A stretch of 64,000 bases of DNA, from the NCBI GenBank assembly GCA_027315255.1, contig DAHUYL010000110.1, forward strand, positions 4,362 to 68,361, in the 5' to 3' direction. A model generated the notes under the pieces. It was not told the DNA's origin. It saw only the letters and a program-made list of their open reading frames with translations, and ran no database searches. Below, piece after piece: positions 24,675 to 44,516 of this stretch. A program made the translations under genes and the position numbers. Each line of letters starts with the position of its first letter. Within the stretch, counting starts at the first letter, position 1. This DNA comes from Solirubrobacterales bacterium. GTDB lineage: Bacteria; Actinomycetota; Thermoleophilia; Solirubrobacterales; Solirubrobacteraceae.

Positions 24675-26007
24675 CCCCGTGCTGGACCCGAAGCTGCTCG
24701 ACCTCGAGGCGCTGCGTGGGTGGATCTGCGAGCAGCGCTGGTACGCGTCGAAGACCCGCACGATCACCGGGGTCGAGCTGATCGAAGAGGTGGAGCTGAG
24801 CGACGAGCTGGTGCTGGCGCTGGCGCAGGTGCGGTTCCCGACGGGGGCGCACGAGCTGTACCAGCTGCCGATGGCGATCGCCGGCGGGGCTGTCGAGTTC
24901 GACGCGCTGACGGTGCCCGCGCGTGCACTCGAGCTGCTCGCGCGGATCCAATCCGGTGAGGACCTCGAGACGGCCGGGGGCCGCTTCAGCTTCCGCCTGG
25001 CGGAAGGGGCCGAGCCGGTCGCCGCGGACGCGTCGGTGCGCGAGCTGGGAGTCGAGCAGTCGAACTCGTCGCTCGTGTTCGGCGAGCAGGTCGTGCTGAA
25101 GGTGTTCCGCAGGGTCCAGGCGGGGATCAACCCCGAGCTGGAGCTGCTGCGCTTCCTGACGATGCACGGCTTCCCGAACATCGCGCCGCTGCACGGCTTC
25201 TACGAGTACGAGGGCGCGGCGCTCGCCGGCACGCTCGGAGTCGCCCAGGAGTTCCTCCCCGACGCGACCGACGGCTGGGCGCTGGCGGTGGCCGAGATCC
25301 CGTCGCAGCCGGACGTGTTCCTCGAGCGCGTGGCCGCGCTGGGCGTCGCGACCGCGCAGATGCACACCTTGCTCGCGTCCGACTCGGCCGACCCCGCGTT
25401 CTCGCCGCAGGAGCCGAGCACGGAGTCGACGGCGCTGTTGACCGCGACGATCGACGAGGACATCGAGCGGATCTTCCTGCGGCTGCCCGACGACCCGCGG
25501 CTCGAGCCGATCGCGGGCCGCGGCGCGGACGTGCGCGAGCGGCTTGCGGCGCGCTCCCAGATCGGGATCGGCGGCCGCGAGATCCGGATCCACGGCGATT
25601 ACCACCTGGGCCAGACGATGGCGACGCCGCGCGGCTGGGTGATCCTCGACTTCGAGGGCGAGCCGGCACGGTCGCTCCCCGAGCGCCGCCAGAAGCGCTC
25701 GCCGCTGCGCGACGTCGCGAGCATGCTGCGCTCGTTCGCGTATGCGGTCTCGGCGGTCGTCCTGCAGCGCGGGCAGGCCGCCCCGGCCGGGTTCGAGCAG
25801 CAGGCGCGCAACTGCTTCCTCGAGCGCTACTTCGCCGAGGTCGACAACACGCTGCTGCCCGCCGGCGAGTCGGCGATCGCCAGCATGCTCGCGATCTTCG
25901 AGCTCGAGAAGGCGATCTACGAGCTGCGCTACGAGCTCGACAACCGGCCGGACTGGGTGTCGATCCCGGTCGCCGGGATCGAGCGGATCCTGGAGTCGGC
26001 CGGATGA
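24667..26007 (+). CDS. mak: Maltokinase (Mak/Pep2)
   Basis: EQSNSS, LKVFRR...[36 protein letters not shown]. Confidence 0.92.
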
Positions 26008-28265: not shown

Positions 28266-28328
28266 TCCGGGGCCGGCGTGCGGCGGCATCGCGCGCGCCC
28301 AACTCGCCAACCTTGGCAGCGAAAAGGA

Positions 28329-28358
28329 CTCTAACCAGCCGAGAACCGGGTTCTTACC
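28329..28358 (+). promoter_or_regulatory. Three 11-bp-spaced direct half-sites (YYTWRCC-like), candidate OmpR-family box upstream of the response regulator
   Basis: CTCTAACC / CGAGAACC / TTCTTACC at 28329, 28340, 28351. Confidence 0.4.
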
Positions 28359-28389
28359 CCGGGCGGCGACACTCGCCGTGCCGAGAATC

Positions 28390-29151
28390 ATGAGCTCTGC
28401 CATCCCAATCGATCGCAGCGAGCCCGATCCGGGTCCGCTCGTGCTGCTCGTCGAGGACGAGCGCTCGATCGCCGAGCCGTTCGCCAGCGCGCTGCGGCGA
28501 GCGGGCTTCCGCGCCGAGCTCGCGGCGACGGGCGAGGACGCGATCGCGCTCACCCGTGACCGGCAGCCCGACGTCGTGCTGCTCGATCTCGGGCTTCCCG
28601 ACCTCGACGGCCGGGTCGTCTGCCGGCGGATCCGCGCCGAGTCGGAGGTCCCGATCATCATGCTCACCGCCAGCGGCGCGCTCGCCGACCGGGTCCTGGG
28701 ACTCGAGCTCGGCGCCGACGACTACGTCGTCAAGCCGTTCGCGGTGCAGGAGGTGATCGCCCGGATCACGGCGGTCCTGCGCCGCGGGCGCCTCGGCGGC
28801 GACTACCCTCGCCAGCTGGTCGTCCAGGACCTGCGGATCGACACCGGCGCGCGGCGCGCGTGGCGCGGGGAGAGCGAGCTCGACCTCACCCGCAAGGAGT
28901 TCGACCTGCTCGTCCGGCTGGCGCGGGAGGCAGGCTCGGTGGTGACCCGCGAGACGCTGATGTCAGAGGTCTGGGACGAGAACTGGTTCGGCTCGACGAA
29001 GACGCTCGACGTGCACATCGGGTGGCTGCGGCGCAAGCTCGACGACCCGGCCGAGCAGCCGGTCTACATCCGCACCGTCCGGGGCGTCGGGTTCGTGCTG
29101 CAGCCGCAACAGCCCGGGGACTCCGGCCCCCGGCAATCACCCGCCCGGTGA
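28390..29151 (+). CDS. OmpR-family response regulator
   Basis: LVEDE, LLDLGLPDLDG, IIMLTA, DDYVVKPF, LTRKEFDLL, LDVHIGWLRRKL, IRTVRGVGF. Confidence 0.95.
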   Translation: MSSAIPIDRSEPDPGPLVLLVEDERSIAEPFASALRRAGFRAELAATGEDAIALTRDRQPDVVLLDLGLPDLDGRVVCRRIRAESEVPIIMLTASGALADRVLGLELGADDYVVKPFAVQEVIARITAVLRRGRLGGDYPRQLVVQDLRIDTGARRAWRGESELDLTRKEFDLLVRLAREAGSVVTRETLMSEVWDENWFGSTKTLDVHIGWLRRKLDDPAEQPVYIRTVRGVGFVLQPQQPGDSGPRQSPAR

Positions 29152-30563
29152 TGAGCCTGAGGGCCCGCCTGCTGGCGGCCATGGCGTACATGCTGGTGCT
29201 GGCGATCGTCGCGTTCGGCGTGCCACTGGCGGTCAGCCTGCGAACCAGGGTCAACGAGGAGGTCCTGACCCAGGCGCGCTCGCAGGCCGACCTGATCGCC
29301 GCGACCGCCGGCGACCTGCTCTCAGCGGCGAGCCGGCCCGAGCTGCGCTCACTCGTGAAGACCGCTTCGGCGTCGCTGCGCGGGCGCGTGCTGATCGTCG
29401 ACGCGCGCGGGATCGTGCTGGTCGACAGCGCCGTGCCCGGCGAGGTCGGCACCAACTACCGGAGCCGGCCGGAGCTGGGGCAGGCGCTCGCGGGTCGCGC
29501 AGACCAGGTGCAGCGCGACTCGCACACGCTCGGCCAGGCGATCCTCGCCACCGCCGTCCCGATCATCCACAACGGCGCCGTCGCCGGCGCCGTCAGGGTC
29601 ACGCAGAGCGTCGGCGCGGTGAGCTCGGCGGTCAGCCGGGTCGAGCTCGCGCTGGGGGCGGTCGGTCTGACCGTGCTCGCGATCGGGCTCGTGTTCGGGA
29701 GCGTGCTCGCTGCCCAGATCGGCCGGCCGCTGCGCCGCCTCGAGGCGGTCGCCCACCGGGTGGCGCAGGGCGACCTGAGCGCGCGCGCGACGATCGAGGG
29801 CAGCTCCGAGCAGCGCTCGCTGTCGCGCTCGTTCAACGAGATGACGAGCCGCATGGCGCTGCTGCTGGGCGCGCAGCGCAGGTTCGTCGCCGACGCCTCG
29901 CACCAGCTCCGAACGCCGCTGACCGGGCTGCGACTGCGGCTCGAGGCGGCCCGTGAGCTCGCCCACGACGCAGCCGTCGAAGCCGAGCTCGATGAGGGGC
30001 TGAGCGAGGTCGATCGGCTGTCGGCGACGGTCGCGGAGCTCCTGGCGCTGAGCCAGGCGGGCGAGCGGCAGCTGGCGGGGACGTCGATCGACCTGGGCGA
30101 GCTCGTCGCCGCTGCGCGTACGCGCTGGCGGGCGGAGGCGGGACAGCGCGGAATCGGCCTCGAGTGCGATTCGAGGCCCCGCGCCGGCACGGTGTTCGCC
30201 GCGCGTGCGGACGCCGACCGCGCGCTCGACGCGCTGATCGAGAACGCGCTGCGCTACTCGCCGCGAGGCAGCTCCGTGTCGCTTGCGGCGCTCGACGGTC
30301 GGCTCGTCGTCAGCGACCGGGGCGCCGGGATCGAGGCGGACGAGCGAGAGGCCGTGTTCGAGCGCTTCCATCGTGGCAGCGCAGGCCGGTCCGGGGCTTC
30401 CGGTCACGGCCTGGGGCTGCCGATCGCGCGCGAGCTCGCCCGCGCCTGGGGTGGCGAGGTCCAGCTCGAGCCACGGCCGGGCGGGGGCACCGTCGCGACG
30501 CTGACGCTGCCGCCGGCCACGCCCGCCGGCGAGCCGAGAGCGGCGGACTTTGCCCGTGCTTAG
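29151..30563 (+). CDS. Sensor histidine kinase (2 TM, HAMP, HisKA, HATPase)
   Basis: ADASHQLRTPL, LIENALRY, DRGAGI, GHGLGL. ATG overlaps the RR stop. Confidence 0.93.
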   Translation: MSLRARLLAAMAYMLVLAIVAFGVPLAVSLRTRVNEEVLTQARSQADLIAATAGDLLSAASRPELRSLVKTASASLRGRVLIVDARGIVLVDSAVPGEVGTNYRSRPELGQALAGRADQVQRDSHTLGQAILATAVPIIHNGAVAGAVRVTQSVGAVSSAVSRVELALGAVGLTVLAIGLVFGSVLAAQIGRPLRRLEAVAHRVAQGDLSARATIEGSSEQRSLSRSFNEMTSRMALLLGAQRRFVADASHQLRTPLTGLRLRLEAARELAHDAAVEAELDEGLSEVDRLSATVAELLALSQAGERQLAGTSIDLGELVAAARTRWRAEAGQRGIGLECDSRPRAGTVFAARADADRALDALIENALRYSPRGSSVSLAALDGRLVVSDRGAGIEADEREAVFERFHRGSAGRSGASGHGLGLPIARELARAWGGEVQLEPRPGGGTVATLTLPPATPAGEPRAADFARA

Positions 30564-30576
30564 CCGAGCCCTGGCT
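30547..30576 (+). promoter_or_regulatory. 11-bp-spaced half-sites, candidate OmpR-family box
   Basis: ACTTTGCC / GCTTAGCC / CCCTGGCT at 30547, 30558, 30569, upstream of ATG 30591. Confidence 0.35.
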
Positions 30577-30590
30577 ACCGTGCAACCGCG

Positions 30591-31175
30591 ATGAGGTATC
30601 GCGGAGCGCTGTGGGCCCTCGCCGCCCTGCTCGGGATCGTCGTCACCGCCGGGCTGACCTGGTCCGTGGGCCGCCTCGCCGGCGAGCACATCGGGCTTCC
30701 CTCCCAGCCGGCGGCGGCGATCCAGGCGCTCGCACCGCCACCATCGAGCAGCACTGCCGATCCCGGCCATGCCGACCCGGCGGGAAGCGCCGACCATCGC
30801 GAATCCGCTGGGACGGCCGTCGCGGTCCGCCGGCGCACGCGCCCGGCGCCGCCACCGACGAGGACCGTCACCGTGACGGTCTACCGTCCCTCGCAGCCGG
30901 CGGTCACCCAGCCGGCGCCCGCGGCTGCGGCCCCGGCCGCGCCCGTCTCCACCCAGACCGTCTCGACCCGGGCCGTCCCGACCCCAACCGTGTCGACGAG
31001 CTCCACGTCGCCGCCCAGCCTGGCCGCCACGACGACCCCCACGGCGCAGGACACCTCGGCGACGCCGCCGGCTCGGACCGCGACCAGCGGTGCGGCGCAC
31101 CACGGCTCCGGTTCGGGTGACGGCGGCGACGGCTCTCAGAATGGCGGCTCGCGCAACCACGGCCCCGACGACTGA
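30591..31175 (+). CDS. Secreted/anchored low-complexity Thr/Pro/Ala-rich protein
   Basis: Hydrophobic N-terminus; G/S/D-rich tail ending HGPDD. Confidence 0.55.
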   Translation: MRYRGALWALAALLGIVVTAGLTWSVGRLAGEHIGLPSQPAAAIQALAPPPSSSTADPGHADPAGSADHRESAGTAVAVRRRTRPAPPPTRTVTVTVYRPSQPAVTQPAPAAAAPAAPVSTQTVSTRAVPTPTVSTSSTSPPSLAATTTPTAQDTSATPPARTATSGAAHHGSGSGDGGDGSQNGGSRNHGPDD

Positions 31176-31223
31176 GCTGAGCGCCCGCGCGGCGAGGGGC
31201 CCCGCCACCGGGCCCGCCGGAGC

Positions 31224-31544
31224 TCAATCGCCGCTGCCGCGGTCGTTGCGCTCGCCGCTGCCGCGGTCGTCGCGCTCGCCACTGCCGCTCGTGCGCGTGC
31301 GCGGGTGCTTGCCGCTCGAAGTCGAGGGCGGGCAGTGACCTTTCAAGAACGCCGGGCACGTGCTCGAACGAGTGGTCACCGCCTTTGTCGTGCGCGCGAC
31401 GCGCGCAACCGCGTGGGGCTTCGAGCGTGCGCCTGTCGCCGGCGTGGTCGTTGCCGCTAGCGCATCGGGAAGTGGTGAGGTGACTGCGGCCGTCGCCAGC
31501 GCCACCGCCAGCGTTCCGACCATCCTTGAGCGGACTGAGGGCAT
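31224..31544 (-). CDS. Small secreted protein with GSGERDDR repeats
   Basis: ATG 31544, MPSVRSRMVGTLAVALATAAVTSPLPDALA signal-like; CPAFLKGHCP; repeat tail. Confidence 0.5.
   Translation of the reverse strand: MPSVRSRMVGTLAVALATAAVTSPLPDALAATTTPATGARSKPHAVARVARTTKAVTTRSSTCPAFLKGHCPPSTSSGKHPRTRTSGSGERDDRGSGERNDRGSGD
31228..31290. repeat. 24-bp tandem repeat, about 2.6 copies
   Basis: TCGCCGCTGCCGCGGTCGT(T/C)GCGC units starting at 31228, 31252, 31276. Confidence 0.85.
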
Positions 31545-31613
31545 GTCAATGGGCCTCCGTTGTCTGTGAGCGGCAAGCGTGACCCTGCCTGTCCCAGCCG
31601 GACCCCATCCGCA

Positions 31614-31642
31614 GGCAAGGCCTTGGCAAAATCTCGGCGACA
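31614..31642 (-). promoter_or_regulatory. 11-bp-spaced half-sites, candidate OmpR-family box
   Basis: Plus-strand GGCAAGG / GGCAAAA / GGCGACA at 31614, 31625, 31636, which is CCTTGCC / TTTTGCC / TGTCGCC on the minus strand. Confidence 0.35.
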
Positions 31643-31726
31643 CAGCCTCTGGGTCCCGGCGCGAAATGACCGTTTCTTTACTCGTGCGAGTCGGGCTGTT
31701 TACGCACGTCCGGAAATACTCGTCGC

Positions 31727-33115
31727 GTGGCAACCGAAGCTCATGCGATCGCAGCCCGCCGGCAAGTTCCGACACAGGGCATCGGAGCACGCGCCTTCGC
31801 GCTGCTGTTGGGCGGTGGCGTGGCGGTCAACGGGGTCGTGCTGGTGTGGTTGTGGTTGCGTGGCGGCGGCATCAGCGCAGTGGCGAGCACCGGCGCTCTG
31901 TGGACCAGCATCGGGCGCCTCACCGGCCTGCTCGGCGCGTATCTCGCACTCGTTCAGGTGCTGCTGCTGGCTCGCCTCCCGCCGCTCGAACGGCGGGTCG
32001 GGTTCGATCGCCTCACCGTCTGGCACCGGGTCAACGGCAAGCTGTGCCTCTACCTGGTGCTGGCGCACACGGTGCTGATCACGCTGGGGTACGCCGCGAT
32101 GGATCAGGTCGGCTTCGGGCGCGAGTTCGCACGGCTGCTGTCGAGCTATCCGGGGATGATCGCCGCGACGGTCGCCACCGGGATGATGGTCGGGCTCGTC
32201 TTCAGCTCGATCGCGATCGTCCGCCGCCGGCTCCCCTACGAGGCGTGGTACGCCGTCCACTTCACCGCATACGCGGCGATCGCACTCGGCTACCTGCACC
32301 AGATCCCGACCGGGAATGACTTCAGCGCGGCGCCGAGCCAGGCGACGTGGTGGATCGCGCTGTACGTCGCCACCGCCGCTCTGCTGATCGCCTATCGCGT
32401 CGTCCGGCCGATCGTCCGCGCGGGACGTCACCGGCTGCGCGTCAGCGAGGTTGTGCGCGAGTCGCCCGACACGGTGTCGATCCTGATCCGCGGGCGCAAC
32501 CTGGCGGCACTTCACGCCCACCCCGGCCAGTTCATGCTGTGGCGCTTCCTGACGCCCGGGCGGTGGTGGCAATCGCACCCGTTCTCGCTGTCGGCGGCGC
32601 CGTCCGGCGACATGCTGCGCATCACCGTCAAGGCTGCCGGCCACTACACCGCCGAGCTCGCCGACATCAGGCCGGGAGCAAGCGTGCTGGCCGAGGGCCC
32701 GTTCGGCAGGTTCGTGGCCGACCGGCGCACACGCCGGCGCGTCACGCTGATCGCCGGCGGCATCGGCGTGACCCCGCTGCGGGCGATCCTCGAGAACCTC
32801 CACGGGGAGCCGGGCGAGATCACCTTCATCCATCGCGTGGTGCACGAGCACGACTGCGTGCTGCGCGACGAGCTCGAGCACCTCGGGCGGCGTCTGGGCG
32901 CGTCCGTCCACCACCTGATCGGCGATCACCGCGACCCGATCGCCGCGCGTTACCTGACGAGGGAGCACCTGCTCGAGCTGGTGCCGGCGCTGGCCGACAA
33001 CGACGTGTTCCTGTGCGGGCCGCCGGTGATGATGGACATCACGCGGCGCAACCTCGTCGCCGCCGGCGTGCCAGCCGCCCAGATTCACTTCGAGCGCTTC
33101 GCGCTCGCGGCATGA
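31727..33115 (+). CDS. Ferric-reductase-like heme b membrane domain fused to an FAD/NAD(P)H-binding (FNR) domain
   Basis: His ligands WHR, AHT, VHF, LHQ; HPFSLS, GGIGVTP, FLCGP, HFERF. Confidence 0.9.
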   Translation: MATEAHAIAARRQVPTQGIGARAFALLLGGGVAVNGVVLVWLWLRGGGISAVASTGALWTSIGRLTGLLGAYLALVQVLLLARLPPLERRVGFDRLTVWHRVNGKLCLYLVLAHTVLITLGYAAMDQVGFGREFARLLSSYPGMIAATVATGMMVGLVFSSIAIVRRRLPYEAWYAVHFTAYAAIALGYLHQIPTGNDFSAAPSQATWWIALYVATAALLIAYRVVRPIVRAGRHRLRVSEVVRESPDTVSILIRGRNLAALHAHPGQFMLWRFLTPGRWWQSHPFSLSAAPSGDMLRITVKAAGHYTAELADIRPGASVLAEGPFGRFVADRRTRRRVTLIAGGIGVTPLRAILENLHGEPGEITFIHRVVHEHDCVLRDELEHLGRRLGASVHHLIGDHRDPIAARYLTREHLLELVPALADNDVFLCGPPVMMDITRRNLVAAGVPAAQIHFERFALAA

Positions 33116-33153
33116 AACGTAACCCCACAACACACACACGAGAAGGAGCACGA

Positions 33154-33510
33154 GTGCACAAGTTCCTCCCGACAGCCATGGCGAGCCTGGGGCTCGCCGC
33201 CTCACTCGCCGCACCCACCGACGCGCTGGCCGCCTCCGGCAGCTACACCGGTGCCGGGTCGACGATGAAATGGGGCACGGTCACCGTCACGATCACCGTC
33301 AGCGGCAAGCACATCACGAACATCTCATCGGTGTATCCCGCCGAACGGCCTCGATCGGCGTTCATCAACAAGGCGGCGGTCACGATCCTGCGCCAGCAGG
33401 CACTGCAATCGCAGAGCTTCAAGCTCCACAACCTGTCGGGCGCGACGATGACGACGGTCGCGTTCGAGAAGTCGCTGGCGTCCGCGATGCACAAGGCGCA
33501 TCTCGCCTAG
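33154..33510 (+). CDS. Secreted FMN-binding (flavinylated) protein
   Basis: GTG 33154 after SD AGAAGGAG; Sec signal ending ALA; WGTVTVTITV; flavinylation motif LSGATMT (SGAT at 33436-33447). Confidence 0.88.
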   Translation: MHKFLPTAMASLGLAASLAAPTDALAASGSYTGAGSTMKWGTVTVTITVSGKHITNISSVYPAERPRSAFINKAAVTILRQQALQSQSFKLHNLSGATMTTVAFEKSLASAMHKAHLA

Positions 33511-33558
33511 CCGATGCACGTGCCGTCATCACCGACCACCGCGACTCGGGGAGAGTTC

Positions 33559-34383
33559 ATGGCTCTCCCCGAGCGCAGCACGCACCGCCTGGAGTTCGTG
33601 ATGGGAATGCCGATCATCGTCGACATCTGCGACGCGGCGTTCGACGACTCGGTGCTCGACGACGTGTTCGAGTGGTTCCGCTGGGTCGACAGCACGTTCT
33701 CGACCTACCGCAGTGACAGCGCGATCAGCCGCCTGAACCGAGGCGAGCTTCCCCTCGAGGCGGCGCACCCCTGGATCCGAAGGGTGCTCGGGCGCTGCGA
33801 GGAGCTGCGCCGCGAGACCGACGGCTACTTCGACATCCGCGCGCCGTACGCGACGCCGGGCGGTGCGCCGGAGGCCGGCCGAGGCGGACCCGATTCGATC
33901 GACCCGTCGGGCTACGTGAAGGGCTGGGCCGTCGCCGAGGCGGCCCGCATGGTCCGGCGTGCCGGCGCGCGCAACTACGCCGTCAACGCCGGCGGTGACA
34001 TCCAGCTCGCCGGCGATCCTGACGGATCCGGACGCTGGCGCGTGGGGATCCAGAATCCGCTCGAACCGGACGGCGTCGCGATGACGCTCGCGCTGACCGA
34101 CCAGGCGATCGCGACGTCCGCGGCATACGCGCGCGGCCGGCACATCGTCGACCCGCACGGGGCGCGCACCGACGGCGCCGGGTTGCTCTCGGTGACGATC
34201 GTCGGACCGGGGCTGGCGAGCGCCGACGCGTACGCGACGGCGGTGTTCGCGATGGGAGCGCAGCGCGGCGCCGAGTGGTGCGCCCAGCTGGCCGGCGGGT
34301 ACGACGCCGTGCTGATCCGCGAGGACGAGACCGTGCTCAGCACCCCCGGGATCGACGCGCTGATCGCCCAGCCGTATGGGTGA
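33559..34383 (+). CDS. apbE: FAD:protein FMN transferase ApbE, copy 1 (start 33514 or 33559)
   Basis: VMGM, FSTYRSDS, DPSGYVKGWAV, NAGGDI, IATSA, HIVDP, ADAYATA. Confidence 0.9.
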   Translation: MALPERSTHRLEFVMGMPIIVDICDAAFDDSVLDDVFEWFRWVDSTFSTYRSDSAISRLNRGELPLEAAHPWIRRVLGRCEELRRETDGYFDIRAPYATPGGAPEAGRGGPDSIDPSGYVKGWAVAEAARMVRRAGARNYAVNAGGDIQLAGDPDGSGRWRVGIQNPLEPDGVAMTLALTDQAIATSAAYARGRHIVDPHGARTDGAGLLSVTIVGPGLASADAYATAVFAMGAQRGAEWCAQLAGGYDAVLIREDETVLSTPGIDALIAQPYG

Positions 34384-34395
34384 CGGCCGCCGGAA

Positions 34396-34510
34396 CGACC
34401 ACAAACCCGCACACCCCCTCCCGGAGGCAGGGGTCGCCGGTTTCGGGTCGTGACGGCGCCCGAATGTGGCAACCCCCTTCCCGGGGTGGGGGTGTGCGGA
34501 GTTGTGGTCG
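34396..34510. repeat. About 115-bp imperfect palindrome (REP/MITE-like), copy A
   Basis: Left arm CGACCACAAACCCGCACACCCCC versus reverse-complemented right arm CGACCACAACTCCGCACACCCCC (21/23). Pairing continues inward to TTCGGG...CCCGAA, centred at 34453. Confidence 0.8.
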
Positions 34511-34539
34511 CGATCGGACAGGAGCGACCCCTGGCCCGA

Positions 34540-34746
34540 TCAGGGGAAGACCTGATCGCCCGAGCGGCGATCGACGATCCTGATCGCGGCGCTCGGGCAG
34601 GACTCGGCGGCCTCGATCAGCAGCTCGTCCGAGGCGGTGCCGATGACGCGGGCGACGTCGTCGAGCGCGAACACGTCGGGTGCGACGTCCACGCAGTCTC
34701 CGTGGGCGGCACAGGCGTCGACGTCGACTTCGGCAAGGTAGTTCAT
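34540..34746 (-). CDS. Single-cluster ferredoxin, CxxHxxC...CP type
   Basis: CAAHGDCVDVAPDVF...AAESCPSAAI. Confidence 0.9.
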   Translation of the reverse strand: MNYLAEVDVDACAAHGDCVDVAPDVFALDDVARVIGTASDELLIEAAESCPSAAIRIVDRRSGDQVFP

Positions 34747-35909
34747 GGTGTTCCTCTCTCGATCAGTTGACGGGCGGCGGGAAGGTTGCGGGGGCGATCG
34801 ACGAGCAGCACCGCGACGGCGCGCTCGGCGCGGCTGAACGTCGCGGCGAAGTTGCGGCTGCCGAGCTCGCCGTCGATCGCGATGGAGTCCGTGGCGCTGC
34901 TACGACCGACGTACTGGATCCGCAGTCCGTACTGGTCGGTCCAGAAGCTCGGCGCGGGCGCCGGCACCGGCTCGAGCCCGAGCATCGTCCGCGCTGCGCG
35001 CGCAGCCTGGCGCGCAGCCGCCTCCCAGTGCGAGCCGGGAAGGTGCCTGCGGAGCGACGGATCGAAGGTCGCGGCGGCGTCGCCCGCGGCGAACACCCGC
35101 GGGAGCCGGCTGCGGCCGTCGGCATCGACGGGGACCCCGGCCGTCGTCTCGATCCCGCTGCCGGCGAGCCAGCCGACATCGGCGTCGGTGCCGACGCCGA
35201 CCACGACGTGATCCGCGGCCACGACGTGGCCATCGGACAGGTGCAGGGCACGTACGGCGCCGCGGCCAGCCTCCAGCCGCTCGATCGTCCGACCGCTCAG
35301 CACGGTCACGCCTTCGTCCTCGTGGAGCCGCGCGAACCAGCTCCCGAGGATCGGACCGAGGACGCCGTGAAGCGGCGACGGGGCAGCCTCGACGATCGTC
35401 ACCTCGAGTCCGAGCGCGCGAGCGGTCGAGGCGATCTCGAGCCCGACGAAGCCCGCACCCACGAGCGCGAGCCGCTCGCCGCGGCGGCCCAGCACGTCGC
35501 GCAGGACGAGCGCGTCGTCGAGCGTGCGCAGCACCGAGACGTTGTCGTAGCCGGTCAGGGTCGGCAGCGGCCGCGGGCGGCCGCCGGTGGCGATCAGCAG
35601 CTGCTCGTACGCCAGGCTGCTGCCGTCGGACAGCTCGACCTTGCGCTCCGCCGCGCGAAGGCCCGTCGCGGCGACGCCGAGCAGCAGCTCGACGCTGTTG
35701 CGCGCGTACCAGTCGGGCGCCCGGAACGCCAGCGAGCCGACCTCGTGCCTGCCGGCGAGCAGCCCCTTCGAGAGCGGCGGACGATCGTAGGGTCGACGTG
35801 GCTCGGAGCAGACGACCCGCACCGGTCCGTCGTAGCCTTCGCGCCGCAGCGTCTCGGCACAGCGCTGGCCGGCGAGCCCGCCGCCGACGATCACGATCCC
35901 GTCGTCCAT
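34743..35909 (-). CDS. FAD-dependent ferredoxin reductase (P450/Rieske-oxygenase type)
   Basis: GGGLAG, PYDRPPLSK, IATGG, GAGFVGLE, FAAGD, HW..A..QA, PSFWTDQY. 4-bp overlap with the ferredoxin. Confidence 0.92.
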   Translation of the reverse strand: MDDGIVIVGGGLAGQRCAETLRREGYDGPVRVVCSEPRRPYDRPPLSKGLLAGRHEVGSLAFRAPDWYARNSVELLLGVAATGLRAAERKVELSDGSSLAYEQLLIATGGRPRPLPTLTGYDNVSVLRTLDDALVLRDVLGRRGERLALVGAGFVGLEIASTARALGLEVTIVEAAPSPLHGVLGPILGSWFARLHEDEGVTVLSGRTIERLEAGRGAVRALHLSDGHVVAADHVVVGVGTDADVGWLAGSGIETTAGVPVDADGRSRLPRVFAAGDAAATFDPSLRRHLPGSHWEAAARQAARAARTMLGLEPVPAPAPSFWTDQYGLRIQYVGRSSATDSIAIDGELGSRNFAATFSRAERAVAVLLVDRPRNLPAARQLIERGTP

Positions 35910-35930
35910 GGATCGCAGCTTCGCCGGCCC

Positions 35931-35988
35931 GAGTAAGAGGGTGGTGGGATCGCGGTAAGGAAACTGCGAACCTTGCCAACGCTTTCCG
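35931..35988. promoter_or_regulatory. Back-to-back candidate regulator boxes in the divergent reductase/apbE2 promoter
   Basis: Minus strand TCCTTACCGCG-ATCCCACCACC-CTCTTACTCGG (35961 to 35929); plus strand CCTTGCC 35971 and CTTTCCG 35982. Confidence 0.4.
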
Positions 35989-36038
35989 CGCGCTTGCCCA
36001 CGGGTTGGCGCCGGATCGGGAAGATTCGAGGCCGATTC

Positions 36039-37022
36039 ATGGCGGACGAGCTCGACTACACGTTCCAGGCGATGGGCAGCGAGATCCGGATGCTGATCGG
36101 CGACCGGCTACTGCGGACGGCGCCGCCGGCGCTGGAGGCGGCCGACCGGGAGAAGGCATACGTGCTCGACTTCGGCCGGCGCCTGTCGAGGTTCATCCCA
36201 GACAGCGAGCTGTCGGCGCTCAACGGCGATCCCGGTCGGGTCGTTCCGGCGAGCGGCCTGCTGCGAGCCGCCGTCGCAGCCGGACTCTGGGCGGCGCAGC
36301 GCAGCGGCGGACTGATCGACCCGACGGTGCTGACGGCGCTGGTGCGCAGCGGCTACGACCACTCGCTCGACGGCGTGGCGCCGGCCTCGTTGACGGACGC
36401 GCTGAAGCACGCGCCGCCGCGGACGGCGGCCCGGCCCGACCCGGCTCGCCGCTGGCAGCAGGTGTCGATCGACGACGCGGCCGGCGTGGTCGAGCGGCCG
36501 CCGGGCATCGCGATCGACACGGGTGGAACGGGCAAGGGACTGTGCGCAGACGCGGTCGCGGTGCACCTGGCCGGCTACTCGCGGTTCGTCGTCGATTGCG
36601 GCGGCGACATCGCCGTCGGCGGCATCGGAGCCCAGCTGCGGCCGTACGTGATCGAGGTCGAGCATCCGCTGACGCAGGCGTCGATCGGTCAGATCGCGGT
36701 GAGTCGCGGCGGCATCGCCACCTCGGGCCTGAACGTTCGGATCTGGCGCAGGCCGGACGGGAGCTTCGCCCACCACCTGCTCGACCCGAGCACGGGCGAG
36801 CCGGCCTGGAGTGGACTGATCGGGGCGACCGCCGTGGCCGAGACGGCGCTCGCCGCCGAGACCCTGTCGAAGACGGCGCTGCTGCTCGGCGCAAGCGGGG
36901 CCCGCGAGGTGCTGGCCGAGCACGGCGGGGTGGTCGTGCACGACTCGGGTGAGGTCGAGGTGATCGGGCCTGTCTCGTTCGAGCCCAGCTCAGCCGCTGA
37001 CTCCTCGCCAGTCGCCGGATGA
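36039..37022 (+). CDS. apbE: FAD:protein FMN transferase ApbE, copy 2
   Basis: FQAMGS, LSRFIPDSELS, IDPT, DTGGTGKG, DCGGDI, IATSG, HHLLDP. ATG 36039 preferred. Confidence 0.88.
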   Translation: MADELDYTFQAMGSEIRMLIGDRLLRTAPPALEAADREKAYVLDFGRRLSRFIPDSELSALNGDPGRVVPASGLLRAAVAAGLWAAQRSGGLIDPTVLTALVRSGYDHSLDGVAPASLTDALKHAPPRTAARPDPARRWQQVSIDDAAGVVERPPGIAIDTGGTGKGLCADAVAVHLAGYSRFVVDCGGDIAVGGIGAQLRPYVIEVEHPLTQASIGQIAVSRGGIATSGLNVRIWRRPDGSFAHHLLDPSTGEPAWSGLIGATAVAETALAAETLSKTALLLGASGAREVLAEHGGVVVHDSGEVEVIGPVSFEPSSAADSSPVAG

Positions 37023-37055
37023 CCAGCGCGCCCGGGTAAACGGGCTCTGGCGCGG

Positions 37056-37073
37056 TCCTTACCGCGCTCTTGA
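37056..37073 (+). promoter_or_regulatory. Candidate regulator box
   Basis: TCCTTACCGCG (exact reverse complement of 35951-35961), followed 11 bp later by CTCTTGA. Confidence 0.45.
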
Positions 37074-37146
37074 CGGCGCCGAGCAAGCTGGCTTCAGCTA
37101 CCGAGTGCCGCCCCGGCGGCACGAGTGAAACCGAAGGAGAACCGGC

Positions 37147-37470
37147 ATGGAACCCAAACCGGACGCACGCACGCCGCAGCCACGGCGCCGACGCCCGTCC
37201 CTCTACCGCACCGTGCTGAGCGTCGCGATCGCCGCGATCGTCGCCGCGTCGATCCCGTTCGCAGCGCTGTACGGACAGGCGCTGCAACCGAGACCGGCCG
37301 CCGCGATCACGGCCGTCAGCGGCTCGGGCGGTACACAGACCCGAATCGTGACCACGGCCTCGGGCCGGGTCGTGACGCAAACGGTCCCGGCCACGGGCGC
37401 GGGCTCCGCGTCTGCCGGCACCGCGACCCCGATCGTGACGCGCACGTCCGTCGCCACTCCAGACAACTAG
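37147..37470 (+). CDS. Small membrane-anchored Thr/Ser-rich protein
   Basis: SD AAGGAG; basic N-terminus, one TM helix, then IVTTASG...IVTRTS. Confidence 0.75.
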   Translation: MEPKPDARTPQPRRRRPSLYRTVLSVAIAAIVAASIPFAALYGQALQPRPAAAITAVSGSGGTQTRIVTTASGRVVTQTVPATGAGSASAGTATPIVTRTSVATPDN

Positions 37471-37474
37471 CGCA

Positions 37475-38026
37475 ATGGCCTCCCATCAGCTGTTCTGGAT
37501 CGCGAGCCGCTCGTTCGGCACGATCGCGATGATCCTGCTGGGCGTGTCGGTCGCGGTCGGCCTGGCGATGTCGGGCCGGATGGCCGGGCGGCCTGCGACA
37601 CGCGCGAAGCTGCGCCGCTTCCACGAGGCGGCGACGCTCGTCACGCTCGGCCTGATCGCGGCGCACGCCGGGCTGCTGCTGCTCGACAGCTATCTCCGCC
37701 CCGGGCTCGCCGGGATCACGATCCCGTTCGTGCTCGGCTACCGGTCGCTGTTCACCGGCATCGGGATCATCGCCGGCTGGCTGGCCGTGGTGATCGGCGC
37801 GAGCTTCTACGTGCGCAAGCGGATCGGGACGCGCACGTGGCGCAAGCTGCACCGGTTTGCGATCGTGACCTACGCGCTGGCGCTGCTGCACGTGCTCGGG
37901 GCCGGCACGGACGCGAGCAGCCCGTGGATGCTCGCGACGCTGACGGGGCTGACCGCGCCGATCGTGTTCGCAGGCAGCTACCGGCTGCTGGGCGCGCAGG
38001 CCGGGCGGGCGCCCTTTCCCGCCTGA
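37475..38026 (+). CDS. MsrQ/ferric-reductase-like di-heme membrane cytochrome b without an NAD domain
   Basis: Four His in two pairs (FHE..AH; LHR..LH), WIASRSFG, WRKLH. Confidence 0.85.
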   Translation: MASHQLFWIASRSFGTIAMILLGVSVAVGLAMSGRMAGRPATRAKLRRFHEAATLVTLGLIAAHAGLLLLDSYLRPGLAGITIPFVLGYRSLFTGIGIIAGWLAVVIGASFYVRKRIGTRTWRKLHRFAIVTYALALLHVLGAGTDASSPWMLATLTGLTAPIVFAGSYRLLGAQAGRAPFPA

Positions 38027-38056
38027 GCGGGAGCCCCGCGGCGGCCGGTGCCGAGC

Positions 38057-38109
38057 GGCCGGCGGATCCGCCGGCCCGGGGCGGGGGAGCCACAAGCCCC
38101 CCGCCCCGG
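38057..38109. terminator. Tandem GC hairpins downstream of the cytochrome gene
   Basis: 20-bp palindrome GGCCGGCGGATCCGCCGGCC (38057-38076) and stem CCGGGGCGGGGG/CCCCCGCCCCGG. Confidence 0.5.
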
Positions 38110-38146
38110 CAAGCCCCGCGCGGAGGCGTCCGGTTATCGTTGCCTG

Positions 38147-40276
38147 ATGGAGGTGTGGCCCGGCAGACCGTTCCCGCTGGGCGCGACATGGGACGGGGGC
38201 GGCACCAACTTCTCGGTGTTCTCCGAGCACGCCGAGGGCGTCGAGCTGTGCCTGTTCGACGAGGACGGCTCGGAGACCCGCGTGCCGCTGAACAGCCGCC
38301 GGGCCTTCAACTGGCACGGCTACGTGCCCGACATCGGGCCCGGGCAGCGCTACGGCTTTCGCGTCCACGGCCGCTACGCGCCGCAGGAGGGGCACCGCCT
38401 CAACCCGGCCAAGCTGCTGATCGACCCCTACGCGAAGGCGATCGAAGGACCCGTGAACTGGGGCGAGGACACGAACGTGCTGCCGTACGTGCCGACGGGG
38501 GCCGACGACGCCGACCTCGAGCCCGACGACGAGGACGACGCCGCCGCGATCCCCAAGTCGGTCGTGATCGACGACGCATTCTTCTGGGAGGGCGACCGTC
38601 CGCCGGGCGTCCCGTTCGCCGACACGGTCATCTACGAGACCCACGTCCGCGGCTTCACGATGACCCACCCGGACGTGCGCGAGGACCTGCGCGGCACCTA
38701 CGCGGGGCTCGCCTCCGAGCCGGCGATCGCCTACCTGTCGGAGCTCGGGGTGACGGCCGTCGAGCTGCTGCCGATCCACCACATCTGCGACGAGCCGTTC
38801 CTGCACCCGCTCGGGCTCACGAACCACTGGGGATACAGCACGATCGGGTACCTCGCACCCCACTCCGAGTACGCCGCCACCGGCCGCCTCGGCGAGCAGG
38901 TGCGGGAGTTCAAGGGCATGGTCAAGGCGCTGCACCGTGCGGGCATCGAGGTGATCCTCGACGTCGTCTACAACCACACGGCCGAGGGCAACCACCTCGG
39001 GCCGATGCTGTCGTTCAAGGGGATCGACAACGCCTCCTACTACCGCTTGAACCCCGACGACCCGCGGTACTACATGGACTTCACCGGAACCGGCAACTCG
39101 CTCAACCCGATCCACCCGAGTGTGCTGCGACTGATCATGGACTCGCTGCGTTACTGGGTGAGCGCGTGCCACGTCGACGGGTTCCGGTTCGACCTCGCGT
39201 CGGCGCTGGCGCGCGAGTTCTTCGACGTCGACCGCCGGTCGGCGTTCTTCGACGTGATCCACCAGGACCCCCTGCTGTCACAGGTGAAGCTGATCGCCGA
39301 GCCCTGGGACGTCGGTCCCGGCGGGTATCAGGTCGGTAACTTCCCGATCCTGTGGTCGGAGTGGAACGGGATCTACCGTGACACGATGCGTGACTTCTGG
39401 CGCGGCAAGGCGAACTGTGGCGAGTTCGCGCGCCGGTTGTCGGGGTCGTCCGACCTGTACAAGTCCGATGGGCGCGAGCCGTTCGCGTCGATCAACTTCG
39501 TAACCTGCCACGACGGCTTCACGCTGCGCGACCTCGTCACCTACGACGAGAAGCACAACGACGCCAACCTCGAGGGCGGACGCGACGGCTCGGGCGACAA
39601 CCGCTCGTGGAACTGCGGCGTCGAGGGCGAGACCGACGATCCCGAGATCCGCGCGCTGCGCGGGCGCCAGCAGCGCAACTTCATGGCGACGCTGCTGCTG
39701 TCGCAGGGGACCCCGATGCTGCTCGGGGGTGACGAGTTCGGGCGCACGCAGCAGGGCAACAACAACGCCTGGTGTCAGGACAACGAGATCTCCTGGTACG
39801 ACTGGAAGCTCGAGCTCGAGGCGCAGGAGCTGCGGGCATTCACGATGCGGCTGATCGCCCTGCGCCGCGCGCATCCGGTGTTCCGCCGCGAGAGCTTCCT
39901 CGAGGGCCTGGCGGCCGGCGACTCGACGCTCCCCGATGCGTGGTGGTTCCGGCCCGACGGGCTGCGGATGACCCGCCGCGACTGGGAAGGCGGTCCGCCC
40001 GCCGTCGGCCTGTTCCTGAACGGCGCAGCGATCCCCAGCCCCGGGCCGCGCGGCGAGACGGTGATCGACGACAGCTTCCTGCTGCTGTTCAACGCGTGTG
40101 ACGAGGAGGTCACCTTCACACTGCCACGGCAACGGATGGGCGCGCTCTGGACACTCGAGCTGGCGACCGCCGACCCGGCGGCGCAACCCGGGAGCGCGAC
40201 GTTCGCCGCGCACACGCAAGTCGAGCTCGCCGATCACGCGCTGCTCGTGCTGCGCCGGGTGCAGGTCGAGCCGTAA
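38147..40276 (+). CDS. glgX: Glycogen debranching enzyme
   Basis: [54 protein letters not shown]. Confidence 0.95.
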
Positions 40277-43418: not shown

Positions 43419-44516
43419 ATGCGACCGGTCCCCGGGCGACGAGGGTCCGGCACCCGGGCCGGACCCTCGGGAATCAGCGCGCTCGGGGCGGTCGTGCTGG
43501 CGCTGGTCGGGCTGCTCTTGACGCAGGCGCCGGCGGCGCGCGCGGGCGGTCGCGGCGACGCGCGCGTGATCGGGACGTTCACGATGCTCGCGGTCGTCAC
43601 CGAGGCGGTGAACGTGAACGGCGAGAGCCCCGGCCAGATCCTCACACGCGCGTGGGCGATCCGGCCGCGCCGCTGCCGGAGAGACTCGTGCCAGTCGCTG
43701 GTGCTCGTGCGCCAGCGCAGTGACGGCTTCCACAGCGCGCTGACGCTGTCGCGGACCGGGCCTGGAAGCTACGCCGGAACCGGCGTCTTCTACGTGGCGC
43801 TCCGGTGCCGGCGCCGCGTCTACCCGCTGGGCAGCCGGGCGCCCTACCGGATCACGCTGGTGGTCGAGAGATCGACGCTGATCGGCGGGATCAGGTTCGC
43901 GACGACGGTCGGGGCCACCTATGTCAACGCGGCACGCTCCGACACCACCCCGTGTCCGCTGGAGTCGAGTCACGACGCGGCGATCTACGCCGGCAACGTG
44001 TCGGGCGGCTTGCCGGGCGCACCGCGAGCGTCGTTCACCGCAACCGTGCACGGCGCGAGCGGCGCGGTCAGCTTCAGGGACACCTCGCGGCCGGGCCGGG
44101 GCAACGGCCGGATCGTCCGTCGCGCATGGTCGTTCGGCGATCCCGCTTCGCGTCACCGGAACACCTCGACGCTGCGCAAGCCGGTGCGCGTCTACAGCCG
44201 ACCTGGCCGCTACCGGGTCCACCTGCGCGTGGTCGATGCCGATGGGCTGAGCGCGACGACCGCCGCGACCGTGACGATCCCGGTATCGACCACGACGGTG
44301 CCGACCACGACGGTGCCGACGACGACGGTGCCGACCACGACGGTGCCGACCACGACCACGCCGACCACGACCACCCCGACGACGACTACGCCGACGCCGG
44401 CGCTGAGCGCTCGATCGTGGCGAGCACCCGATCGAGCGCATGCACGAGCGGGTCGATCCCGCCGGCGGCCGGCTGGACGACCGCATACAGGCAGCTGGTC
44501 CGGCCGTCGGCCGTGA
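43419..44516 (+). CDS. Secreted protein with a PKD domain and Thr-rich stalk
   Basis: Signal ending ARA; WSFGDP...VYSRPGRYRVHLRVVD (PKD); TTTVP repeats. Start could be 43392 or 43419. Confidence 0.7.
   Translation: MRPVPGRRGSGTRAGPSGISALGAVVLALVGLLLTQAPAARAGGRGDARVIGTFTMLAVVTEAVNVNGESPGQILTRAWAIRPRRCRRDSCQSLVLVRQRSDGFHSALTLSRTGPGSYAGTGVFYVALRCRRRVYPLGSRAPYRITLVVERSTLIGGIRFATTVGATYVNAARSDTTPCPLESSHDAAIYAGNVSGGLPGAPRASFTATVHGASGAVSFRDTSRPGRGNGRIVRRAWSFGDPASRHRNTSTLRKPVRVYSRPGRYRVHLRVVDADGLSATTAATVTIPVSTTTVPTTTVPTTTVPTTTVPTTTTPTTTTPTTTTPTPALSARSWRAPDRAHARAGRSRRRPAGRPHTGSWSGRRP
44288..44397. repeat. 15-bp tandem repeat (TTTVP x4, TTTTP x3)
   Basis: ACCACGACGGTGCCG-type units. Confidence 0.85.

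Follow-up and report, generated by a model that had tools for sequence, protein, structure and literature searches.

A candidate ferredoxin-supplied cytochrome b module with an ApbE-like partner in Solirubrobacterales

Introduction

Ferric-reductase-domain (FRD) proteins, among them NOX, FRE, STEAP and MsrQ, form the main single-protein route for transmembrane electron movement. To our knowledge, the electron supply of bacterial short FRD forms, which have no dehydrogenase domain, is known only for Escherichia coli MsrQ, whose donor is Fre. Here a 64,000-nucleotide stretch of contig DAHUYL010000110.1 from a Solirubrobacterales bacterium (referred to as the window) was analysed, in which a short FRD cytochrome b (QA) is encoded close to a ferredoxin reductase, a ferredoxin, an ApbE-like protein (ApbE2) and a small membrane protein (s). 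From sequence comparison, and with a probability of roughly 55%, this set of five genes, called module 2, would encode a two-component-regulated, split NOX/FRE-like chain running from NADH through the reductase, a [3Fe-4S] ferredoxin and two successive b hemes to an outside acceptor.

The FRD families differ at the first canonical heme-ligand position. A conserved arginine there goes with a flavin bound at the inner site in MsrQ and STEAP, whereas a histidine goes with a second heme in NOX and the long FRE proteins. Four-histidine short forms are rare and adjoin the long forms in the phylogenetic tree, and some FRD proteins of bacteria carry fused ferredoxin-type domains (Zhang et al. 2013, PMC3591440). 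In the MsrQ-like clusters of extracytoplasmic flavinylation systems the donor was a fused NAD-binding domain in 1437 of 1797 clusters and a NuoF-like protein in 31 (Méheust et al. 2021, eLife, PMC8238504). This census required a signal peptide or lipidation site on the ApbE or FMN_bind protein, and neither it nor its follow-up paper describes a reductase-ferredoxin donor for such clusters, in agreement with an initial annotation of the window which had presented a ferredoxin-fed variant as not known to be described. The accepted flavinylation motif is D-x-x-[ST]-G-A-[ST], and the ApbE triad, in Vibrio cholerae numbering, is Ser241-His257-Asp285.

Gene content of module 2

The ferredoxin gene (34540–34746, minus strand) encodes 68 residues with a match to Pfam Fer4_13 (E 6e-9), and its start overlaps by 4 nt the stop of the reductase gene (34743–35909, minus strand), which encodes 388 residues with matches to Pyr_redox_2 (4e-56) and Reductase_C (3e-16). 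ApbE2 is encoded divergently (36039–37022, plus strand, in a reading frame open from 35973) and has 327 residues with a match to the ApbE family PF02424 (4e-38). It is followed on the plus strand by the gene for s (37147–37470; 107 residues, no Pfam family) and, after a gap of four bases, by that for QA (37475–38026; 183 residues, five predicted helices). All five genes lie where the initial annotation had put them. Its statement that the window contains no P450 or oxygenase was likewise upheld, as Pfam scans of the approximately 60 genes called in the 64 kb gave no P450, Rieske, ring-hydroxylating or other oxygenase family.

Reductase and ferredoxin

The sequence of the reductase assigns it to the putidaredoxin-reductase/FdR9 type. 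The best matches in the PDB were 6tuk_B (5e-65) and 1q1r (2e-62), with putidaredoxin reductase and BphA4 among the closest solved relatives, and the NCBIfam matches to dioxygenase reductases were all under their cut-offs. By Rossmann-fold rules, the sequence GAGFVG...VTIVE suggests a preference for NADH.

The ferredoxin contains three cysteines in total, arranged as C12-A-A-H-G-D-C18 ... C50-P, with a histidine at the place of the second cysteine of a 4Fe-4S motif, as in the ferredoxin domain of the CYP51 fusion (6mcw). The central position of CxxXxxC in 40 metagenome orthologues was His in 29, Gln in 10, Glu in one and Cys in none, and a [3Fe-4S] cluster is expected because this position is never a cysteine. 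The net charge of the window ferredoxin is about −10, within an orthologue range of −7 to −13. The pair thus combines an FAD reductase with a small Fe-S ferredoxin of matching types, as in class-I P450 systems, and the earlier description as a P450-type reductase with a CxxHxxC ferredoxin is retained on the basis of the three-cysteine CxxHxxC..CP pattern and the reductase matches. The C-terminal tail D-x-x-[ST]-[GN]-E-Q-V-Y-P was present in 77 of 77 ferredoxin orthologues; as a possible pseudo-substrate of ApbE it was given no weight, since actinobacterial 3Fe-4S ferredoxins linked to P450s have comparable ...ETGE tails. Locus L143 encodes at 636–1856 (minus strand) another reductase of this type, with Pyr_redox_2 and Reductase_C, about 2 kb from a signal-less ApbE1-type gene. 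The proteins of that contig carry the NCBI label Acidobacteriota bacterium, and the closeness of the two genes there may be coincidence.

Cytochromes QA and QB

Alignment of 23 QA sequences revealed four invariant histidines, spaced as H50-x13-H64 and H126-x12-H139. The same two pairs, at x13 and x12 spacing, are found in QB, a paralogue of QA with about 41–51% identity in the genome loci described below. With a cut-off of 28 bits for Pfam Ferric_reduct, QA scored 24.9 and QB 32.1 bits. An AlphaFold2 model of QA (mean predicted local distance difference test score 73) contained five long helices, and its top Foldseek matches, at probabilities of 0.91–0.99, were SpNOX, STEAP1/2, DUOX1 and the membrane domain of NOX5. 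Two loops of QA are strongly basic (+6 and +7) and are cytoplasmic by the positive-inside rule; the inner heme would therefore lie at H50/H126 and the outer heme at H64/H139. Unlike the NOX-like protein of the neighbouring module 1, QA has no fused FAD- or NAD(P)H-binding dehydrogenase domain, so that it needs a separate electron donor.

Because His50 stands where MsrQ and STEAP have arginine, QA is assigned to the NOX/FRE-type short forms and not to MsrQ proper, and the ligand pattern predicts a short two-heme ferric-reductase-domain protein of this type. Of the previous description as an MsrQ-like di-heme protein without an NAD domain, the two heme sites and the missing domain are consistent with these data; the likeness to MsrQ, which has Arg and FMN, is not.

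Conservation of gene linkage

One genome per GTDB species was scanned for relatives of QA, and neighbours within 10 kb were identified by tblastn with the window proteins. This gave 57 loci, all in Solirubrobacterales or in unclassified Actinomycetota metagenome-assembled genomes, and often two or three per genome. The reductase was found in 38 of these loci (36 with adjoining ferredoxin) and an ApbE2-type gene in 41. Both were present in 36 loci, the reductase only in 2, ApbE only in 5, all of which were at contig ends, and neither in 14, giving a Fisher p of 1.4e-7 for their co-occurrence. Ferredoxin orthologues adjoined the reductase or QB in 36/57 loci. A separate scan anchored on ApbE2 in metagenome contigs gave 80 further loci for comparison; a cytochrome gene began within 150 nt downstream of ApbE2 in 48 of the 52 with enough downstream sequence, and the ferredoxin was present in 11 of the 15 with wide flanks. 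The co-occurrence of the pair with ApbE and Ferric_reduct, which the initial annotation had put forward as a check, was thus observed in both collections, and the possibility it had raised that the pair is unlinked to ApbE clusters elsewhere does not hold.

The linkage is kept across at least four different gene orders. With FdR for the reductase, Fdx for the ferredoxin and s8 for another small anchored protein, these included Fdx<FdR< diverging from >s8>ApbE2>QB, a co-directional FdR>Fdx>ApbE2 with 8-nt spacing, s>QA>FdR>Fdx>ApbE2, ApbE2>QB>FdR>Fdx and ApbE2>QB>Fdx. When 1,090 proteins of 61 loci were clustered without supervision, only seven families recurred, namely the cytochrome, response regulator (RR), sensor kinase (HK), ApbE, reductase, ferredoxin and small proteins, and no P450 heme-loop or Rieske motif was found among the 1,090. 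A molybdopterin oxidoreductase (MsrP) was absent from the window and from the conserved neighbours in the 61 loci.

Several variations on this arrangement were observed. In several genomes there are two or three separate small-Q loci, for example in MFD04428.bin.2.43, MFD00008.bin.1.121 and MFD05502.bin.1.24, and the small-Q family is accordingly multi-copy. In L123 (9622–9828), L137 (9717–9923) and about 12 more metagenome loci the gene after QB encodes a ferredoxin and no reductase was detected close by; the ferredoxins of L123 and L137 have Gln or Glu instead of His in CxxXxxC. In 12 loci (L046, L047, L050, L051, L052, L054, L058 and others) a P-type ATPase of the heavy-metal translocating kind, which lacks an HMA domain, is encoded directly downstream of the cytochrome gene. 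It scored above the cut-off of TIGR01525 and has TPCP in its membrane motif; assignment to class P1B-5 by TPCP, a criterion for which a literature search gave no confirmation, was dropped, and the data support only a heavy-metal P-type ATPase.

Proposed electron-transfer chain

In the proposed mechanism the dehydrogenase part of a NOX/FRE-like envelope redox enzyme would be encoded as separate genes. NADH would reduce the FAD of the putidaredoxin-reductase-type enzyme, which would pass electrons to the acidic [3Fe-4S] ferredoxin. The ferredoxin would dock on the basic cytoplasmic face of the four-histidine cytochrome b and reduce the inner heme (H50/H126). From there electrons would cross to the outer heme (H64/H139) and leave for an acceptor outside the cytoplasm, the candidates being O2, a partner that bears a cofactor, or a metal ion, for instance Fe(III) or Cu(II). 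The gene content, conserved linkage, heme-ligand pattern and likely fold class described above, together with the shared operator described below, are the observations behind this scheme, and the charge complementarity between the acidic ferredoxin and the basic QA loops was also counted in its favour. Each electron-transfer step, the direction of flow, the NADH preference and the acceptor are inferred from genomics. The mine-drainage and soil source of the sequence, the P-type ATPase in 12 loci and the His/Asp-rich tails of several small proteins are hints that soil Thermoleophilia may use the module in handling metals.

Several points weigh against this scheme. Acidic ferredoxins and basic cytoplasmic loops are generic features. 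The Pfam score of QA is below the gathering threshold, and its structural matches are weak, with E-values of 0.06–0.3 and TM-scores of 0.46–0.59. In 14 of the 57 small-QA loci no reductase, ferredoxin or ApbE is encoded within 10 kb, and QA-type cytochromes can thus stand alone or be served in trans. The immediate cytochrome neighbour of the pair in relatives is usually QB, which the window is without; the ferredoxin occurs without the reductase in L123 and L137, and neither gene is present in four of the 15 wide metagenome loci. The chain assigns no role to ApbE2, and the support as a whole comes from comparative genomics, the sequencing runs with this sequence being DNA runs.

ApbE2 and the small anchored proteins

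The start of ApbE2 is probably at 36039 and not at 35973, because G+C at third codon positions (GC3) falls upstream of the ATG at 36039 and the orthologues all begin M..ELDYTF.AMGS. ApbE2 matched the solved ApbE structures 3pnd, 1vrm, 4xgw and 6nxi, and in length it carries an insertion of about 30 residues relative to ApbE1 of module 1. Its homologues (n=120) were all 322–334 residues long, and no signal peptide or lipobox was present in 36 orthologues. Ser229 and His246 of the triad are kept at the right spacing; the equivalent of Asp285 is an invariant glutamate, Glu274, in EAETLSK, and the metal-site threonine neighbouring the triad aspartate is replaced by lysine. A fusion of s8 to ApbE2 by frameshift or readthrough as a membrane anchor was considered and rejected, as the frames differ, the genes show ordinary stop/start couplings and the homologue lengths are uniform. 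The ApbE1 clade (window 33514–34383; L142 3184–5801), with homologues of 250–300 residues, is also without signal peptides, and the FMN_bind protein encoded beside window ApbE1 is exported, with a signal peptide and SGAT. For this reason the missing signal peptide of ApbE2 does not settle the matter alone. An obligate partner of the cytochrome, the ApbE-like protein could act as a transferase on some unrecognised substrate or could serve the cytochrome as an adaptor that holds a flavin.

The s protein has a basic N-terminus (RRRRPSLYRT), one helix and a Thr/Ser-rich tail with degenerate VTT[A/R]S and VTRTS. Its gene has a GC3 of 0.85, and the protein was kept in 41 of the 57 loci by tblastn. 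The motif [VI]TT[RH]xS occurs at 15.7 per 1000 residues in s proteins compared to 0.02 elsewhere, an enrichment of about 800-fold. It is C-terminal in 19 of 26 s orthologues and also in s8, is repeated three to five times in the proteins encoded upstream of s8 (designated 'big'), which end in GGHGG.GDGGDGG, and appears as AVTTRSS in a window protein (31224–31544). The weak similarity of the latter to the 'big' proteins of relatives, which have VTTRTS repeats and are encoded upstream of s8-ApbE2, is tentative because of the compositional bias of low-complexity proteins. No Pfam or NCBIfam family covers these tiny anchored [VI]TT[RH]xS proteins, and several small proteins of the clusters have tails rich in His, Asp or Glu. 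The small Thr-rich anchored proteins probably belong to the cytochrome as subunits or associate with it as partners.

The alternatives to the split NOX/FRE-like chain are taken here in falling order of probability. The first, which is the complete chain of the initial annotation, is that ApbE2 flavinylates s, s8 and 'big' at non-canonical Thr or Ser residues and that these proteins then take electrons from the outer heme as flavin carriers. This is unlikely. Stop and start codons overlap or abut in the operons s8>ApbE2>QB and s>ApbE>Q, the tails contain no other possible redox group, and the enriched and repeated [VI]TT[RH]xS, like the [ST]GA[ST] of some s orthologues, would offer a site. However, the canonical D-x-x-[ST]-G-A-[ST] is absent from all module-2 families, while the FMN_bind protein of module 1 has HNLSGAT, and Pfam detected no FMN_bind, DUF2271 or DUF3570 domain in module 2. 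The shorter [ST]GA[ST] is present in 8 of 26 s orthologues (five TTASGAT, three ATGAT), in each case inside a low-complexity Thr/Ser/Gly/Ala tail; the window protein has TTASGRVV, with no G-A followed by an acceptor Thr or Ser, and the s proteins directly beside ApbE (L026, L028, L029) are entirely without an SG motif. The tails would also face outward by the positive-inside rule, whereas ApbE2 looks cytoplasmic, an objection that is weakened if the absence of signal peptides is a lineage trait, as the ApbE1-type enzymes beside exported SGAT FMN_bind proteins indicate. The ferredoxin-fed cytochrome proposed in the initial annotation is thus supported by the linkage and by the lack of a nearby P450, and its flavinylated small protein as the end point is not, in view of the unconserved [S/T]GA[S/T], the missing export signal of ApbE2 and the Asp285→Glu substitution.

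A more specific and still less probable form would be that the signal-less Asp→Glu ApbE clade installs a flavin, or a related nucleotide-derived group, on [VI]-T-T-[RH]-x-S of s, s8 and 'big'. If this were true, these proteins would be minimal membrane-tethered flavin carriers fed by a ferredoxin-supplied two-heme cytochrome, and would represent a second flavinylation code and the smallest known flavoproteins, for cell-surface metal reduction.

It is quite unlikely that ApbE2 is a bridge instead of a transferase, bearing FAD on the cytoplasmic face of the cytochrome in place of the dehydrogenase domain, so that electrons would pass from the ferredoxin through the ApbE2 flavin to the hemes. Such a position would fit the nearly constant and tightly spaced adjacency of the cytochrome gene (48/52), the absence of an export signal in 36/36 orthologues of uniform 322–334-residue length, the lack of a substrate motif in the module and the replacement of the triad aspartate by invariant glutamate and of the adjoining metal-site threonine by lysine. 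The kept Ser229 and His246 argue for retained catalysis, and we know of no ApbE protein that acts as a redox carrier. The isoalloxazine ring is exposed outside the pocket in ApbE structures (review, PMC12052999). MsrQ and STEAP have a flavin at the inner site, which STEAP shares between soluble and membrane parts, but the inner site of QA has histidine at both positions and points to a second heme rather than to a flavin pocket.

Shared boxes and regulation

The gap between the reductase and ApbE2 genes contains candidate divergent operator and promoter boxes (35951–35998), consisting of CGCGGTAAGGA at 35951–35961 and CTTTCCGCGCGCTTGCC at 35982–35998. Within the window CGCGGTAAGGA was found only at 35951–35961 (plus strand) and 37056–37066 (minus strand), and CTTWCCSCGCKCTTGMC only at 35982–35998 and 37058–37074; GGTAAGGA occurs only twice in the 64 kb, both times in the intergenic regions of the module. 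These counts carry little weight, as 1.2 occurrences of the 11-mer box with up to one mismatch are expected by chance in the window, and the 17-mer pattern was derived from its own two sites, which makes its count circular. The argument rests on conservation in relatives, where a layout of GGTAAG, about 20 nt, CTTACC, 5 nt and CTCTTGAC precedes RR1, RR2/s and big/s8/ApbE2 in dozens of loci, and GGTAAGG...CTTTACC...CTCTTGAC lies between the reductase and big/s8 in L007, L014, L017 and L022. The boxes on both arms reported previously were therefore recovered at equivalent intergenic positions of related loci, and probably represent a shared operator and promoter for OmpR-type regulators. A shared operator would place the reductase-ferredoxin/ApbE2 and s-QA units in one regulon. 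No named two-component system could be assigned, all NCBIfam matches being under their cut-offs.

That the module is mainly sensory, with the cytochrome and small proteins reporting the redox or metal status of the envelope to the sensor kinase and the pair only keeping the hemes poised, appears improbable. The most constant neighbours are indeed the response regulator (51/61 loci) and the sensor kinase (44/61 loci), 14 loci are made up solely of RR/HK, a small protein and Q, the RR genes themselves have the conserved operator in front of them, and E. coli msrPQ adjoins hprRS. An effector operon under regulation would, however, be just as likely to adjoin its regulators, an electron supply of its own driven by NADH seems more than a sensor needs, and the window has kept its small-QA operon despite the loss of HK2 and RR2.

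The last alternative, that the pair is an ordinary class-I redox partner of a P450 or oxygenase encoded elsewhere and lies beside ApbE2 incidentally, has in its favour the P450 and dioxygenase reductases closest to the reductase (6tuk, putidaredoxin reductase, BphA4), the known association of CxxHxxC ferredoxins with P450s, including the fusion 6mcw, and the ability of such pairs to serve several clients, but it is largely refuted by synteny and very improbable, since linkage to ApbE2 and the cytochrome recurs in well over 60 independent loci (36 genome and some 30 metagenome) of several gene orders, the ferredoxin is often the first gene after QB, the pair has its operator in common with the small-QA operon, and neither the ±10 kb around the cytochrome in 57 loci nor the 64-kb window contains a P450 or Rieske gene; the genome may still encode a client at another place.

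The window as a reduced copy

Relatives usually have the order RR1>HK1>(anchored protein)> Fdx<FdR< big> s8> ApbE2> QB> HK2<RR2< s> QA>. The window order is RR1, HK1 and the anchored protein (28441–31175), module 1, Fdx<FdR<, ApbE2 and s>QA, with s8, QB, HK2 and RR2 missing. Orthologues of RR1 and HK1 (about 55–69% identity) flank the reductase-ferredoxin/ApbE2 unit in relatives. The 124-bp spacer at 37023–37146 between ApbE2 and s aligned to the RR2/s intergenic region of relatives, the match starting some 40 nt before the RR2 start codon. The spacer contains GGGTAAAC...CCTTACCGCGCTCTTGAC at 37057–37074. Its minus strand also has AAGAGCGCGGTAAGGACC, the element usual upstream of RR genes, but no response regulator gene follows, as in a relic of the RR2/small-QA divergent promoter. 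The alignment places a deletion junction at about 37023–37035 and identifies the window as a reduced derivative, from which s8, QB, HK2 and RR2 were deleted with only the RR2-promoter relic left; ApbE2 abuts the small-QA operon because of this loss. The order ApbE2-small-cytochrome is secondary, as in relatives ApbE2 precedes QB and small-QA is a neighbouring operon with its own two-component system.

Neighbouring genes and genomic setting

The G+C content of the window is approximately 72%, and the named homologues of its proteins are from Solirubrobacterales and related Thermoleophilia. The same sequence was found in one mine-drainage and one soil metagenome, both DNA runs. Independent Logan contigs from two runs covered 34300–36626 and 36597–38262 and spanned both intergenic junctions, so that the compact gene order was rejected as an assembly artefact at these two points. 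A scan of 34300–38200 for sigma-70 promoters and intrinsic terminators found nothing, and an Rfam scan of 28000–38200 gave only chance-level miRNA and sRNA matches.

Upstream of module 2 the plus strand encodes an OmpR-type response regulator (RR1, 28441–29151), a HAMP/HisKA sensor kinase (HK1, 29148–30563) and an anchored Pro/Thr/Ser-rich protein of 194 residues with a His/Gly/Asp-rich C-terminus (30591–31175), an orthologue of which directly follows HK1 in relatives (L091, L092, L096; 40% identity, E 3e-29). The small secreted or anchored protein with AVTTRSS (31224–31544) is on the minus strand. Module 1 comprises, on the plus strand, a NOX-like protein with fused FRD, FAD and NAD domains (31727 or 31820 to 33115; FAD_binding_8, NAD_binding_1), the exported FMN_bind protein with HNLSGAT (about 33106–33510) and ApbE1 without a signal peptide (33514 or 33559 to 34383). 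An imperfect inverted repeat at 34396–34510, with 52-nt arms that are 77% complementary and spaced by 11 nt, separates the convergent ApbE1 and ferredoxin genes. It may terminate transcription in both directions or be a scar left by recombination where the two modules meet.

The block from RR1 to QA (28441–38026) splits a glycogen/trehalose cluster into glgE-treS-pep2-glgB (20951–28265) and glgX (38147–40276). A GlgX query matched none of the 57 related loci, and this position between the glg genes therefore seems particular to this genome. A short minus-strand reading frame of VVVGT repeats at 44210–44374 (MVVVGVVVVGTVVVGTVVVGT...), called by a GC3-based gene finder, is probably a tandem DNA repeat and not a gene.

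Comparison with known systems

The four-histidine short form together with an NADH-ferredoxin reductase and a [3Fe-4S] ferredoxin provides a concrete, testable second answer to how short FRD forms are supplied with electrons. If it were correct, P450-type redox partners could have a membrane cytochrome as their client. The module also adds an ApbE branch without a recognisable substrate and a family of Thr-rich micro-proteins, both of which lie outside the published flavinylation census because that census required a signal peptide.

The MsrQ-like flavinylation clusters of Méheust et al. resemble module 2 in that a PF01794 cytochrome is encoded with ApbE, in their concentration in Actinobacteria and in the proposed movement of electrons from the cytosol to the exterior (PMC8238504). 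Module 1, with its NOX-like, FMN_bind and ApbE1 proteins, conforms to their definition and is a textbook example. Module 2 differs in having no FMN_bind gene, no canonical motif and no ApbE2 signal peptide; it lies outside the definition, and the last of these features would have kept it out of the census. The ApbE of the Klebsiella pneumoniae fumarate reductase system is cytosolic and has no signal peptide, like ApbE2, but its FMN_bind substrate is evident, is also cytosolic and bears the canonical motif, whereas ApbE2 has no such neighbour and carries Asp285→Glu (PMC12052999).

E. coli MsrQ (YedZ) with Fre is similar to the arrangement proposed for QA, being an FRD protein without a dehydrogenase domain that has a basic cytoplasmic face and is reduced by a separate soluble NAD(P)H flavoprotein (PMC12525009). 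MsrQ has Arg77 and binds one heme and FMN, whereas QA has His50 and four invariant histidines; the MsrP molybdoenzyme is encoded together with MsrQ and none is found near QA; and the donor is Fre for MsrQ, where the reductase and [3Fe-4S] ferredoxin are proposed for module 2. SpNOX (PDB 8qt6), the best structural match of QA, and the long bacterial FRE proteins share the four-histidine, two-heme domain. They have an FAD/NAD domain and six helices compared to five helices and no such domain in QA, and NOX systems, unlike module 2, have no ApbE-like protein or Thr-rich small proteins. The class-I P450 chains, represented by the putidaredoxin system and by actinobacterial FdR with 3Fe-4S Fdx (6tuk), contain the same reductase family and the same three-cysteine ferredoxin type as module 2. 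Their client is a P450, while the conserved neighbours in module 2 are ApbE2 and a membrane cytochrome b, with no P450 in the window or the 57 loci. Relative to the known MsrQ-like and NOX systems, the new element predicted for module 2 is most likely the use of a reductase-ferredoxin pair as a separate electron donor.

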